From positions 40,867-104,866 of the forward strand of contig CAZRJR010000002.1 of NCBI GenBank assembly GCA_964600985.1: a stretch of 64,000 nt of DNA. The letters are read 5' to 3'. The position numbers were made by a program, and so were the translations under genes. Positions 1,205 to 34,033 of the stretch are shown here, one piece after another. The stretch's first letter is position 1. Each line of letters opens with the position of its first letter. Under the pieces are notes generated by a model. It was not told the origin of the DNA and did no database searches. It saw only the letters and a program-made list of their open reading frames with translations. This DNA comes from an uncultured Candidatus Saccharibacteria bacterium. GTDB taxonomy: Bacteria; Patescibacteriota; Saccharimonadia; CAILAD01; JADZBC01.

Positions 1205-3478
1205 TTAAGGTGTTGGTGGAGGTACGGCATCGTGAACTGGTGCAGTTGCCACAGCAACAGGATGTGCGCTAGGGCGTGGAGCATGGGCAGGAGGAGCAAG
1301 CCTGCCGGTTACCGTCCTTGTTCCTCCTGGTCCAGCCGCGGTGGTTACCGCTGGACTAGGAGTTGCTCCTGGCGCGGTACCAAAATAATGCACTTCTGAT
1401 GCTGCTTCTTTTGGATTCTGCTTATACGTAATAGTTGGTGCGGCGGTCCCGGCGGGCTTACCTGCTAGGTAGCTATCTACGCCCCGGCCAAGAGTGGTCG
1501 CTTCAAGAACTCTTCTTTGTTCACGCTCAGGGGCGGTTTCTGATTCTCCTAAAGCGCTTCTCAATTGAATGAGCTTTGTAGCGTCAACTGGTAGGCCTTT
1601 GGCAGCTCGGCCTTCTTGCTTCTCAAGCTCTTCGGAGTACTTCTTTTTGAGCATATCTTTTGCAACTGTTTGGGTTTTACCTTTGCCGGTTCTTGCCTCT
1701 ATCATAAGGGCGTCGTCAGACAAACCACTCGCCCAGCCTTCTTTCTCTTTTTTAATCCTCGACTCTGCAAGACCGGTTCGCTTGAGGCGTTCTTGCCTAC
1801 TAAAATCAGTTATAGGCCCAAGTTTAGTAGGTGCTCGTCCTCCAGTTGCCTTATCAATCCTGTCTTTATATCCACCCTCTTTGGACCAACTATCTTTAAC
1901 TGCGCCCTTGGTCTTACCAGCCGCCCAGTCACCAAGCTTGCCACCTGTGGCCGCCATAAGACCGCCACTCCATTTGAAGGCCTTAGGAACCATTAGGAAG
2001 CCTATGAACGGTAGTAAGGCCCCTACGATCTGTATAATTGTTCCATTGCCATCGGACTTCATTATGCTACCTATGGCTGCAGACCCATACACAATAGCAA
2101 CTATAATTGGGTACATCATTACTAGCTTAATCAGGTTAGTCCACCATGTTTTAAAGAGTTTCTCTGTGTTTGGAAGTACCTTAGCTGCAAATGCTAGTGG
2201 TGCCACGAGCACCAACACGTATAACATAGCCATGCGCAAAGCCAATATACCTAGAACAACTATGAGGGCTACTATAGCTATAACGATCATCGAAATAACT
2301 AGGAATATAGCTCCTACAGAGGCAAGGGCAGTAGTGAGCTGGGCGGCTCCACCGTCAGCTCCACTTGCACCAAGTGCACTAAAGAATCCTTGTACTCCTG
2401 CCCCAAGGATATTCCCCACTTCTACAATAGCCCCAGCTATAAGGTAGGCAAATTGAGAAAGTATAATTGCCGCAACTAGCCTCGGTACCATCTTCTTGAG
2501 TGCGTAACTATCAAGGCCTATTGAAAATGAGTTTGCAAATATGATTATCAGGAAGATGAGTACATAGAATGCATTAGCTAGGTTCAGTAGCCGCTGGTTG
2601 GCGGCCATAAAGTCTGCATTTTGAAAACCAGAGGTATTAACATCTAAGATACTCATTAGCCAACTGGAAAGAGTATCTGCCGTAGATTGCAGCAGGTTCT
2701 TGACTGGACAAAGAATAAAGTCCAGCCCTCCACCACCACAATCGTCTCCACCCTTATTTTCCTTAAATCCCTTGAGCCCTGATTTATATCCATTTTGAGA
2801 ACTTGCTGAGACTTTTTTTCCAATTGCTGTAGCCGTACCGCCTTTATTCTGACCACCAATGGTGCACTCAACGGGGCCATCTTTGTTTACCACAACACTA
2901 CATATGCCACTCTCTCCAGCTTTTTTGATATTATCATCGTCACCCGCAATAGTGTCGTACAAAGCTTCTCCAGGAGAGTATTTGCGCCAGTCCTGCGTGA
3001 GGATTATATATGAATAATCCCCTGACGAGTCATTTGAAGAGTTCGCGGTCTTGCCTAGCGGAAAGACAACATACCCCCATTCCTTATTCTTTACAGAATC
3101 ACTAGTTCCGTCTGAGTTCTCAGCTTCGAATACGTCCTTGCCAATCTGGGCTGATTTAACAGGATTATAATAGTAATCCTTTTTGTTACATGACGTACTG
3201 TTTCCGCAGTTAACAAACCGCGCCGAGTGTAGTTCGCAATGAACTTTACTTGAGTTGATAATATCGCAAACCAAGTCATCCTTAAATGCGGATGTAGGGT
3301 CGGTAATTGGATTAAATCCTCCGTCGAGCGTACTGACAGATTTGTATTGATTGGGTGTGTATGGGCCTGGTGCCGAACCTTGAGCCGAGGCTTCACCAGG
3401 AAACCCTATAAGCACAATCATGGTCAATATAGCCGCAGCCATGAGTATAGTTTTGAGTCTACATAGTTTTGTGGTCAT
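1205..3478 (-). CDS. Large polytopic membrane protein, VirB6/TrbL-like (T4SS channel component), with a signal peptide and a Pro/Ala-rich C-terminal tail
   Basis: 757 aa. N-terminal signal peptide (MTTKLCRLKTILMAAAILTMIVLIGFPGEASA), a Cys-containing extracytoplasmic domain, at least six hydrophobic helices, and a C-terminal P/A/T-rich extension. Placement between the PrgI-like gene and the pilin array supports a VirB6/TrbL role. Confidence 0.5.
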   Translation of the reverse strand: MTTKLCRLKTILMAAAILTMIVLIGFPGEASAQGSAPGPYTPNQYKSVSTLDGGFNPITDPTSAFKDDLVCDIINSSKVHCELHSARFVNCGNSTSCNKKDYYYNPVKSAQIGKDVFEAENSDGTSDSVKNKEWGYVVFPLGKTANSSNDSSGDYSYIILTQDWRKYSPGEALYDTIAGDDDNIKKAGESGICSVVVNKDGPVECTIGGQNKGGTATAIGKKVSASSQNGYKSGLKGFKENKGGDDCGGGGLDFILCPVKNLLQSTADTLSSWLMSILDVNTSGFQNADFMAANQRLLNLANAFYVLIFLIIIFANSFSIGLDSYALKKMVPRLVAAIILSQFAYLIAGAIVEVGNILGAGVQGFFSALGASGADGGAAQLTTALASVGAIFLVISMIVIAIVALIVVLGILALRMAMLYVLVLVAPLAFAAKVLPNTEKLFKTWWTNLIKLVMMYPIIVAIVYGSAAIGSIMKSDGNGTIIQIVGALLPFIGFLMVPKAFKWSGGLMAATGGKLGDWAAGKTKGAVKDSWSKEGGYKDRIDKATGGRAPTKLGPITDFSRQERLKRTGLAESRIKKEKEGWASGLSDDALMIEARTGKGKTQTVAKDMLKKKYSEELEKQEGRAAKGLPVDATKLIQLRSALGESETAPEREQRRVLEATTLGRGVDSYLAGKPAGTAAPTITYKQNPKEAASEVHYFGTAPGATPSPAVTTAAGPGGTRTVTGRLAPPAHAPRPSAHPVAVATAPVHDAVPPPTP

Positions 3479-3551
3479 TTGGTTAAATTATAGTATACCT
3501 AAGATAAAAAAGTAATGCTTAAGCTGTAATACGGTAAGGCTGCCGTGCGCC

Positions 3552-18043: not shown

Positions 18044-18120
18044 TGGTGTATCCGGAGGGATTCGAACCCCCGACCCCCAGCACCGCAAGCTGATGCTCTA
18101 TCCAACTGAGCTACGGATAC
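18044..18120 (-). tRNA. tRNA-Arg (anticodon reads GCG)
   Basis: GTATCCG acceptor stem, D-arm GCTCAGTTGGATAGAGC, anticodon stem TCAGC/GCTGG with loop TTGCGGT, T-arm GGGGGTTCGAATCCCTC, encoded CCA. The backbone aligns closely to bacterial tRNA-Arg(ACG), but position 34 is G. Confidence 0.7.
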
Positions 18121-18290
18121 ACGTGTAAAACAACCGTTATTCTACCCTATTTAAGCCCATCTGTAAATTGTAGCTTCCTGGCCATCGAAGATCAGAAAGG
18201 CTGGAATGGAAGAAGTAAGACTGAGCGAGGATTGCAGAGCCCTGCCTTGAGGGCGAACCCCGCAGCGAAATTCATACCTCAAAGTTAACA

Positions 18291-18456
18291 GCTGCCTCTA
18301 GATCTGAGTCAGGGCCAGGAATACTTTTGCCTACTTTTGGTATGTTCAAAAGTAGGAGATGGCTTAAAAAAGGGTTTATGCAGACCCTTCGGCTCCGCTC
18401 AGGGTGACGGATGAGTATTCAAGATGACGAAGTAGAACCTTTTAGATTATCTAAAA
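18291..18456 (-). repeat. Decayed copy of the hammerhead-associated element (inverted relative to the copy at 33580-33784)
   Basis: The reverse complement aligns to 33612-33784, including the hairpin CCTACTTTTG-N7-CAAAAGTAGG and GTCACCCTGAGC...CGAAGGGTCTGC. The ribozyme core is mutated (TTAGATA for CTGATGA). Confidence 0.55.
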
Positions 18457-19212
18457 CCGTAGCGCGCGCAGCAGACGGTCGATTAGATCATTGCGGGGTG
18501 GAACTTTGGGTAGCACACTTCCCATGAGGTCCTCTACTTTGTCCTCCTCGCCCTCTTGGATCGGCAGCGACACGAGCGTGCCAAATTGTTTGCTTGGCAC
18601 CAGCTCAAAAACCCGCTGGCCATAGTCGCTGATTTCGTAAAACGCCGAAAAGTGATCAAAGCGGTAAGATTTGTCGCCCACATACACGCCGTGGGTGGTA
18701 ATGGAGTAGGTGAGCGTACGAGGCTTGCGCTGCGCGTAAATCACGAGCGCGATACACATGAGCACCAGTAGGCCAATGGTAAGGTACTGGCGGGTGTATA
18801 TGGCCAGCCCGATCATTGCAGTAAAGAACAGAGCGAGCAGAAAGTACCAACCAGCCGGCTTGTTGGTAAAGGTGAACTCGGGGGCGTTCCAGCTCATAAG
18901 GGCTGTTTCGGCGGTAGGGTTAACTTGCTCAGGTGCTTCAGACTCATTGTGTGGCTCATCGCCAAGGTCGGCGTCCTGCATGCTCTGTGACTCATTTTGA
19001 AGGCTCTGGGGCGCAGTTTCGGTCGAGGGCGAGTAAATAGGCGGCGCTGCGGTTTCGGGCGCGCTCACGGCCTGTGGTGCGGTCATAGCGCCTATGCTTG
19101 TGGGTTGGGGCGCAGTAGCCGGCTCGCTGCTTGTAATCGCCGAGTCAGTATTGGCTGGCTCTGCCGCAGCCGGTCTGTAGGTTACGCCTGGTTTTGCTTC
19201 ATCGTCTTGCAT
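18451..19212 (-). CDS. Hypothetical membrane protein with a Pro/Ala/Thr-rich N-terminal region
   Basis: 253 aa with two central TM helices. Confidence 0.5.
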   Translation of the reverse strand: MQDDEAKPGVTYRPAAAEPANTDSAITSSEPATAPQPTSIGAMTAPQAVSAPETAAPPIYSPSTETAPQSLQNESQSMQDADLGDEPHNESEAPEQVNPTAETALMSWNAPEFTFTNKPAGWYFLLALFFTAMIGLAIYTRQYLTIGLLVLMCIALVIYAQRKPRTLTYSITTHGVYVGDKSYRFDHFSAFYEISDYGQRVFELVPSKQFGTLVSLPIQEGEEDKVEDLMGSVLPKVPPRNDLIDRLLRALRF

Positions 19213-33490: not shown

Positions 33491-33579
33491 GCCGCAACAC
33501 AACAAGTAGTTCCTTCGGGGACTACGCAGGCACAGGAGTAAGCCCCACAAACTCCTCACTCCGAGCTTCGGCTCGGGGT

Positions 33580-33636
33580 GGCAACATCAATAACTGAGTA
33601 GTTATTCTGATGAGTCCAAAAGGACGAAATGTTGTA
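33580..33636 (+). ncRNA. Hammerhead ribozyme, type III (self-cleaving)
   Basis: GGCAACA-UC (cleavage after C33588), stem I hairpin AATAACT-GAGT-AGTTATT, CUGAUGA, stem II GUCC-AAAA-GGAC, GAAA, and UGUUGU pairing back to GGCAACA. All conserved core nucleotides are present. Confidence 0.8.
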
Positions 33637-33784
33637 AGTTACTTTCGGCGGTCATACTTTGTCACCTGAGCCAGTCGAAGGGTTTGCCTTAACTCTCTAA
33701 TTCTCCTCAAAACACCTTCCTACTTTTGAATATGCCAAAAGTAGGAAGGTGTATTCCCAGCATGGGACTCACATCTAGGAGCAC
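33637..33784 (+). repeat. Structured sequence downstream of the hammerhead, repeated (inverted, decayed) at 18291-18456
   Basis: Contains the hairpin CCTTCCTACTTTTG-AATATGC-CAAAAGTAGGAAGG. Aligns with the reverse complement of 18291-18456. Confidence 0.55.
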
Positions 33785-33920
33785 CCAATTCCTCATCATA
33801 CAGATATTCGCTCCCACTGCGAGTTTAAAGACTCTCGTGGTTAGCTTATTCTAATGCTTCGAAACTGTTTTTCCTGATGTTCGAATGCTGGATAGGGCAA
33901 GAAGCAAAGAAATCAAGGGC

Positions 33921-33981
33921 TTGACGGGCCCACAGCTACTTTTGTACACTGTACTTAGCACTCAAAGCATTAGAGTGCTAA
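33921..33981 (+). promoter_or_regulatory. groESL promoter (TTGACG-18-TACACT) overlapped by a CIRCE operator TTAGCACTC-N9-GAGTGCTAA (HrcA site)
   Basis: Perfect CIRCE inverted repeat at 33955-33981, immediately upstream of groES. Confidence 0.85.
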
Positions 33982-34033
33982 TGCTTACTAAGAGTAAAGT
34001 TACAGTAATAATACTATCAACAAGGAGGCAGAT

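Follow-up and report, generated by a model that had tools for sequence, protein, structure and literature searches.

Correia elements (CREE) of Neisseria and the ERIC/IRU sequences of enterobacteria are intergenic repeats of 100–150 nt or more, which form a long hairpin when co-transcribed with their neighbors; in the RNA this hairpin is processed by RNase III or RNase E, altering mRNA stability. Terminal inverted repeats of 26 bp, together with a TA duplication, are a further feature of Correia elements. The bcr1-type repeats of the Bacillus cereus group are MITE-like, with a conserved predicted RNA structure and a TTTAT target duplication. The repeat described here occurs twice in the 64-kb stretch of Saccharibacteria DNA that was analyzed (the window; about 50% G+C, five tRNAs), once upstream of groES (copy A) and once beside a tRNA-Arg gene (copy B), and can be set beside these families and several others.

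Like the REP sequences and their REPIN (BIME) arrangements, it is extragenic and non-coding, and consists of imperfect palindromes whose inverted pairs are able to form a long hairpin; its hairpin is kept by compensatory change, and one hairpin type has GTAG/CTAC at the foot of the stem. Inverted extragenic pairs are found at most Saccharibacteria loci, although the window copies are single. Unlike REP sequences (20–40 nt), the core unit as defined by alignment of copies is 175–200 nt long, and includes a pseudoknot-capable hairpin and a multi-helix rod; a second hairpin type has GAAC, GGGC, or GGAC rather than GTAG, so that the repeat is not built of short GTAG units; and few copies per genome have been seen, rather than hundreds. 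No gene for the REP/REPIN partner RAYT (TnpA-REP, a Y1 HUH transposase) was seen in the 8-kb loci.

With the Correia and ERIC families the repeat shares insertion near gene ends and promoters, and presence or absence at orthologous sites. The sequences are however dissimilar; no counterpart of the 26-bp terminal repeats and TA duplication of Correia elements could be demonstrated here, and the 5′ pseudoknot hairpin and head-to-head units belong to the Saccharibacteria repeat and to neither family. By analogy, RNA processing of the CREE/ERIC type, with a change in mRNA stability, would be the most likely effect at the RNA level. The bcr1 repeats are also small, intergenic and mobile-looking, with compensatory substitutions, and share the ambiguity between selfish DNA and functional RNA, but come from another phylum, differ in sequence and fold, and have a defined target duplication.

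PATEs derived from IS200/IS605 elements (e.g., Nezha) are likewise rich in hairpins, and obvious terminal inverted repeats or target duplications are lacking. In the present repeat, attempts to define terminal inverted repeats or a target-site duplication gave nothing clear, the left flanks of the two window copies offering only TTAC (copy A) and CTAC (copy B); on these two flanks, insertion may have been 3′ of this tetranucleotide, as IS608 inserts 3′ of TTAC. PATEs have hairpins near their left and right ends and a cognate TnpA; in the present case no TnpA or TnpB gene was seen. In being short, non-coding, multi-copy, and present or absent at orthologous sites, the repeat resembles a MITE. 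Finally, the hammerhead 5 nt upstream of copy A and the rod-like fold of the repeat recall retrozymes and viroid-like hammerhead elements, but the repeat itself includes no ribozyme, and copy B and some 40 other units are without one. Since there is a single hammerhead rather than a flanking pair, no circular RNA is predicted. A literature search on hammerhead, REP, and MITE sequences in Saccharibacteria, and on hammerheads with groES, found no description of such a repeat, within an incomplete coverage of the literature.

The original prediction held that the reverse complement of 18291–18456 is homologous to 33612–33784, and the core of this is borne out: the local alignment of 33660–33778 with 18409–18298 scores 66, compared to 17.5 ± 2.3 (maximum 30) for 500 dinucleotide shuffles, and the four shared blocks it quoted are all present. 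The inner homology stands, but both ends of the interval were misplaced, with the outer 25–30 nt aligning at chance level and about 110 nt missed: homology extends that much further, toward the tRNA as far as 18168 and toward groES to about 33904. The segment 18291–18456 is the 5′ part of a complete repeat copy on the minus strand (copy B), which matches copy A, also 264 nt, with 75% identity over 236 aligned columns. Coordinates of both copies and their parts are given in Table 1.

Table 1. Positions of copies A and B, their parts, and adjoining features in the window
Feature	Position	Strand	Comment
Copy B (264 nt)	18168–18431	-	Small hairpin, spacer, pseudoknot hairpin, rod, conserved tail; lies between the stop codon of the 253-aa ORF (gene 18451–19212) and the -35 box of the tRNA-Arg promoter
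Small upstream hairpin of copy B, GTCACCCTGAGCGGAGCCGAAGGGT	18384–18408	-	Stem ACCCU/AGGGU
Pseudoknot hairpin of copy B, CCTACTTTTG-AACATAC-CAAAAGTAGG	18330–18356	-	Loop AUAC predicted to pair with GUAU (18321–18324), beyond linker CAAAA
Rod-like long hairpin of copy B	18177–18319	-	MFE fold; closing helix CCUGGCC (18319–18313) with GGCCAGG (18183–18177)
Sigma-70-like promoter of tRNA-Arg(gcg), TTTACA-17-TAGAAT	18139–18167	-	Directly after repeat end; tRNA gene at 18044–18120
Insertion junction	18432–18456	-	17-nt palindrome and partial repeat of ancestral gene end
Type III hammerhead (predicted)	33581–33636	+	Adjoins copy A, outside the repeat; predicted cleavage after C33588
Copy A (264 nt)	33641–33904	+	Between hammerhead and groES promoter
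Small upstream hairpin of copy A, GTCACCTGAGCCAGTCGAAGGGT	33661–33683	+	
Pseudoknot hairpin of copy A, CCTTCCTACTTTTG-AATATGC-CAAAAGTAGGAAGG, plus GTATT	33715–33755	+	GTATT (33751–33755) predicted to pair with loop AAUAU
Rod-like hairpin of copy A	33757–33891	+	Closed by CCAGCAU (33757–33763)/AUGCUGG (33885–33891)

By nhmmer, profiles of related units match the window at exactly two places, copy A at 33721–33891 (E = 1.6e-41) and copy B at 18354–18178 (E = 1e-14 with a 14-unit profile; a broader 36-unit profile gives 3.8e-31, with a match at 18354–18154). Both matches cover the full length of the model, so that copy B is not decayed but complete, and represents a slightly different subtype. 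By blastn, copy A is 82% identical to a sequence in L010 over 145 nt, and 78% identical to one in L053 over 175 nt (collected loci are cited by L number). A search of the window against Rfam at gathering threshold found nothing besides tRNAs; Rfam (release 15) searches with both copies and 25 related loci, at gathering and E-value thresholds, found only tRNAs, sub-threshold hammerheads, and a weak TwoAYGGAY match in an unrelated locus.

A scan for the exact hairpin pattern CTACTTTTG-N7-CAAAAGTAG, with one genome per species, found 93 loci, about a quarter of them in Saccharibacteria, Saccharimonadia, or Patescibacteria MAGs with several matches each: six hairpins at five loci in JBPOIL01, four loci each in CAYTBW01 and JAYRII01, three each in JAYRIB01 and CAZNJX01, and two in CAZGYV01. 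At least six Saccharibacteria MAGs thus have the hairpin at more than one locus. A profile search over the collected loci gave about 45 units in 26 of them. Identity among copies within one genome is only 77–96%, which argues against a recent burst.

Each unit starts at its 5′ end with the hairpin NNNCTTTTG-N7-CAAAAGNNN (CTTTTG-N7-CAAAAG), followed by an A-rich linker, (N)CAAAA(G), and by 4–6 nt that complement the 3′ portion of the loop, an arrangement that would give an H-type pseudoknot. The remainder is an imperfect rod of about 70 bp, whose closing helix joins the bases following the pseudoknot to the 3′ end of the unit; after the rod comes a short conserved tail, (T)TAGCNRCARG. At most loci there are two inverted units, with some 36 nt of A/T-rich spacer between their head-to-head hairpins; all are intergenic. 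The window and the JAYRII and CAZGYV MAGs instead have single units preceded by a small hairpin, GTCAYC(C)TGAGC..CGAAGGRT (in the window, GTCACC..CGAAGGGT).

This small hairpin is common to copies A and B, and is found as GTCATCCTGAGCGATAGTCGAAGGATC in L085, L079, and L034; its stem covaries (AUCCU/AGGAU vs. ACCCU/AGGGU). In the form GTCAYCCTGAGC..(N)..CGAAGGRTC it is tandemly repeated in L085 (200–330) and stands on both sides of the unit in L034 (1338–1631), where the flanking GTCATCCTGA..TCAGGATC hairpins resemble terminal inverted repeats; this is not so at the window copies. Its loop resembles the stable GCGAAGC mini-hairpin motif.

Flanking genes are convergent in five cases, tandem in seven, and divergent in four, with the elements almost filling the intergenic space. 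The single units (both window copies and L010) are in the hairpin-first orientation, co-directional with their flanking genes, and those in the window stop 0–28 nt short of the following gene's -35 box. Ten flanking genes in the 8-kb loci are ordinary housekeeping genes, and neither a transposase nor any other candidate mobilizing gene was found beside any element among them. Downstream of copy A, at 33921–33983 in the window, the groES-groEL operon has a sigma-70-like promoter (TTGACG-18-TACACT) and a perfect CIRCE/HrcA operator, TTAGCACTC-N9-GAGTGCTAA, at 33957–33983; promoter and operator are both conserved in L033, L004, and L096/L097.

Several other identities were considered for the repeat and rejected. 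It is not an intrinsic terminator, as the T-run is absent and none was called. A stand-alone small RNA gene, transcribed from a promoter in the central spacer, is not borne out: sigma-70 matches reach 5–9 of 12 at best, at inconsistent positions, and the promoter scanner called none. A TnpB/omega-RNA system does not fit the neighboring ORFs of about 400 aa, which encode glycosyltransferases, proteases, PGK, a Mur ligase, and the like. Phage or plasmid origin was rejected after the hairpin pattern gave no match in viral contigs, and the phage and plasmid collections gave none either.

The proposed structure is well conserved. RNAalifold on 14 units gives the hairpin and a five-helix rod; with the pseudoknot added before pairs were counted, standard pairs fill 92.9% of cells, compared to 84.4% in shuffles (none of 500 reaching the observed value) and 32–46% on sliding the 3′ partners. 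Changes on both sides are seen in 18 pairs, compared to 11.2 in shuffles (0 of 500). The loop and its downstream complement covary, for example as GGGC/GCCC, GACC/GGUC, GGAC/GUCC, AGAC/GUCU, AUAC/GUAU, and AAUC/GAUU; the longest match averages 4.43 nt with a unit's own partner and 2.66 nt with mismatched ones (permutation p < 1e-4). The closing helix is found in four compensated versions, GCGACAU/AUGUCGC, CCGACC/GGUCGG, and the two in Table 1, each of the latter being private to its copy. A copy with its own compensated closing helix is not a fossil; the earlier picture of one intact and one fossil copy therefore has to be given up, copy B being of full length and, with hairpin and rod folded for each unit alone, having a fold z of −4.25 where copy A has −3.59.

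Evidence for insertion comes from the tRNA-Arg locus. Homologues of the adjoining 253-aa ORF, 57–67% identical, are found on contigs of related organisms, and in three of these relatives (L175, L176/L177, and L178/L179) the gene order is kept: tRNA-Ser(gct), tRNA-Ser(tga), ORF, tRNA-Arg(gcg). All three have an empty site, where the stop codon leads directly into the conserved promoter, (C)TTTAC...TAGAAT, and then the tRNA, in about 47 nt. In the window, 283 extra nt lie between stop codon and promoter, consisting of copy B and a 19-nt junction. The claim that the element is mobile or duplicating is upheld by these empty sites and by its multiple copies in related genomes.

The junction itself includes a 17-nt palindrome, TTTTAGATTATCTAAAA (18440–18456), of which TTAGATAATCT is one half, spanning the TAG stop codon at 18451–18453. 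Next comes GGTTCTAC, similar to the ancestral end of the gene (CGGTTCTAA(C) or CGGTTCTAAC) in the insertion-free relatives; a check for target-site duplication at copy B found only this partial repetition of gene-end sequence (GGTTYTA), close to the left junction. The palindrome and gene-end repeat are what had been read as a mutated ribozyme core: it does overlap the stop codon of the gene at 18451–19212, as was claimed, but as a junction palindrome and not as the remnant of a ribozyme. The junction looks like a small rearrangement or duplication at the point of insertion.

Two further loci, L180 (1222–1280) and L181, have 57 extra nt between the ORF stop codon and the tRNA-Arg promoter. These have a weak similarity (TCAGCTCTAGACGCCAAGCTGT, CTCTGCTAGCCT) to the copy B rod, not significant by nhmmer, and judging by this sequence may be the deleted relic of a unit at the same site. 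Just past tRNA-Arg in L178 (3528–4367) and L179 (2533–3906) there is a serine recombinase gene with Resolvase/Recombinase domains, and the tRNA-Arg neighborhood may be a general insertion hotspot. An association of the repeat with tRNA genes as such was rejected: among 22 related loci, a tRNA lies within 8 kb in only three, and the adjacency to tRNA-Arg is therefore incidental.

At groES, the nearest relatives (L096/L097) have an orf304 homologue followed by the promoter, CIRCE, and groES, without Band_7, hammerhead, or unit. None of 80 metagenome groES loci, up to 73% identical and used as negative controls, has a unit or a hammerhead. The number of units upstream of groES is one in the window and two each in L033 and L004; similarly, after FemAB there is one in L010 and two in L014. 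Gain of the repeat in this lineage, at both the tRNA-Arg and the groES loci, is the best-supported reading.

Given the observed homology, copy number, structure conservation, and insertion polymorphism, the repeat is probably a non-autonomous, hairpin-rich, non-coding intergenic element of the MITE/REP type, spreading as DNA in a Saccharibacteria (Saccharimonadia) clade. It would insert into intergenic space directly after stop codons and directly before promoters, encoding nothing itself. The transposition mechanism and any RNA-level effect we infer by comparison: movement would be in trans, by a hairpin-recognizing enzyme, as for REP/REPIN, IS200/IS605-derived, or MITE elements, and after insertion neighboring transcripts would run through the element, placing it in a 3′ or 5′ UTR, where the rod could influence how the RNA is processed or how stable it is. 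This structured repeat family in reduced Saccharibacteria genomes is apparently undescribed; at a few hundred non-coding bases per locus, it would be a noticeable cost to them.

Counted against mobility is the presence of the element upstream of groES in three genomes (those of the window, L033, and L004). This persistence, with the rich covariation, could equally mean selection for a function. The main rival to a mobile repeat, possible though on the whole unlikely, is that these are functional structured RNAs, maintained because selection favors them and not because they spread selfishly. They could form a family of small RNAs with many copies, or act in cis within UTRs, as signals for processing or stability or as insulators that separate an upstream gene from the next promoter; a conserved protein or ligand would then bind at the pseudoknot hairpin. 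The strong conservation of structure, in which pseudoknot, closing helix, and inner helices all have compensatory changes, is what such RNAs should have. So is the orientation of the co-directional single units, since the pseudoknot is sterically plausible only with the hairpin first, and the close approach of the window units to the next -35 box also speaks for a function. Self-cleavage by the predicted ribozyme directly ahead of copy A would set a fixed 5′ end for it, and in Acinetobacter the same module of hairpin, linker, and loop complement is found at a single conserved 3′-UTR locus.

On the other hand, promoter prediction gives no sigma-70 promoter within the units or directly in front of them, as stand-alone transcription would need, and no single cis role fits paired units pointing both ways in convergent, tandem, and divergent contexts. 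The tRNA-Arg site works without the element in relatives, and there is no matching Rfam family. Nor is there an excess of G·U pairs (25, of which 14 are in one invariant column) over A·C mismatches (14): with G·U not clearly above A·C, the counts single out no functional strand, as would fit if the constraint acted on DNA, or on both strands, and not on a single RNA strand. The clean insertion polymorphism at a tRNA promoter, the covariation, and the recurrence of the pseudoknot module across phyla make this family a test case for whether such bacterial repeats are purely selfish DNA or also have an RNA role.

The hammerhead upstream of copy A has a different distribution. It has the core motifs, stems I–III, and covariation support of a type III hammerhead, and matches RF00008 with 42.5 bits (E = 8e-8), below the gathering score of 48.5; it is thus a predicted ribozyme. 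A homologue in L033 (4833–4888) keeps the core, with stem II changed from GUCC/GGAC to GCUC/GAGC, compensatory changes that make a real ribozyme probable. Searched with a descriptor, the collected loci together gave these two hammerheads only, both upstream of groES, and none in the other 40 or so units (at more than 20 loci). The hammerhead belongs to the region upstream of groES, as a feature of that locus and not of the repeat.

In the window, three further hairpins precede the hammerhead (33497–33580) and are conserved in L033 (block 4961–4833, minus strand); two have UUCG loops, and one has compensatory changes (CCGAGC/GCUCGG vs. CCGGGC/GCCUGG). This hairpin-hammerhead block (33497–33636) follows the stop codons of different genes, Band_7 in the window and a 579-aa gene in L033, and in both is upstream of the repeat and groES.

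It had been proposed that copy B is the decayed descendant of a mobile, self-cleaving element of about 200 nt carrying the hammerhead, with its ribozyme core mutated. The hammerhead does directly abut the repeat in both the window and L033, and the similarity of copies A and B extends some 20 nt beyond the small hairpin on its upstream side, stopping 5 nt short of the ribozyme. However, the supposed mutated core (18433–18456, compared with 33612–33640) aligns at chance level: for 18428–18500 (minus strand) against 33576–33642 the best score is 13, where shuffles give 11.8 ± 1.8 and 25.6% of them reach 13. A cmscan of 18100–18600 at E ≤ 10 found no hammerhead-like match, nor did the descriptor search find a hammerhead near copy B. 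With the hammerheads among all loci confined to the groES upstream region, copy B structurally intact and of full length, and the “core” a palindrome built on a gene end, such an origin is highly improbable. What survives of a hammerhead-associated element of about 200 bp is that the window has two copies of a small non-coding element; the hammerhead lies outside it, and the repeat shows no sign of self-cleavage. The tempting story of a mobile ribozyme leaving fossils behind is corrected accordingly.

Chance resemblance, or a common generic terminator hairpin, can be dismissed with near certainty: the most conspicuous common block is indeed an A/T-rich hairpin, of a kind that recurs by chance in large databases, and some matches in the exact-hairpin scan look like chance, but the global alignment of copies A and B scores 97 where shuffles give −12 ± 12 (maximum 21), the profile E-values run from 1e-14 to 1e-41, and the hairpin has no T-run after it and no terminator-like site called.

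The hairpin scan also reached outside the Saccharibacteria. In about 11 other lineages the hairpin is accompanied by the (N)CAAAA linker and a covarying loop complement, neither of which was searched for; loci with this module are spread over several unrelated phyla (L002, L013, L029, L036, L038, L039, L041, L043, L044, L051, L069, and L086). When 306 kb of unrelated control loci were scanned generically for the module, there was no match. An identical 9-bp stem is found in intergenic repeats of Granulosicoccaceae, Pseudoxanthomonas, Cupriavidus, Fluviicoccus, a Clostridia MAG, Christensenellaceae, and Cytophagales, and in Granulosicoccaceae loop and complement covary (AAAAGCA..UGCU to AAAAGCG..CGCU). 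In most of these lineages the module is part of short intergenic repeats, often at contig ends; at eight loci a short contig ends no more than about 60 nt from the hairpin, which suggests high copy number.

No description of this combination of hairpin, linker, and loop complement was found in the literature. It is conceivable, though we hold it as a tentative idea, that the module marks an undescribed and widespread class, either of structured mobile non-coding elements or of RNAs recognized by one conserved protein. If so, the Saccharibacteria units would be its most elaborate members.

Some of the module-bearing loci have features of their own. In Acinetobacter lwoffii ED23-35 (L002, 854–2134) a 1.28-kb IS3-family insertion lies beside the hairpin-rich 3′-UTR element, and is absent in other strains (L021 and L016). 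The Granulosicoccaceae module-bearing repeat in L039 includes sub-threshold TwoAYGGAY matches at 61–209 and 3381–3506 (34–36 bits, with a gathering score of 43). In a Christensenellaceae MAG (L038, 5756–7183) there is a non-coding tandem repeat of about 492 nt, in three copies 90–92% identical, with two pseudoknot-type hairpins in each unit.
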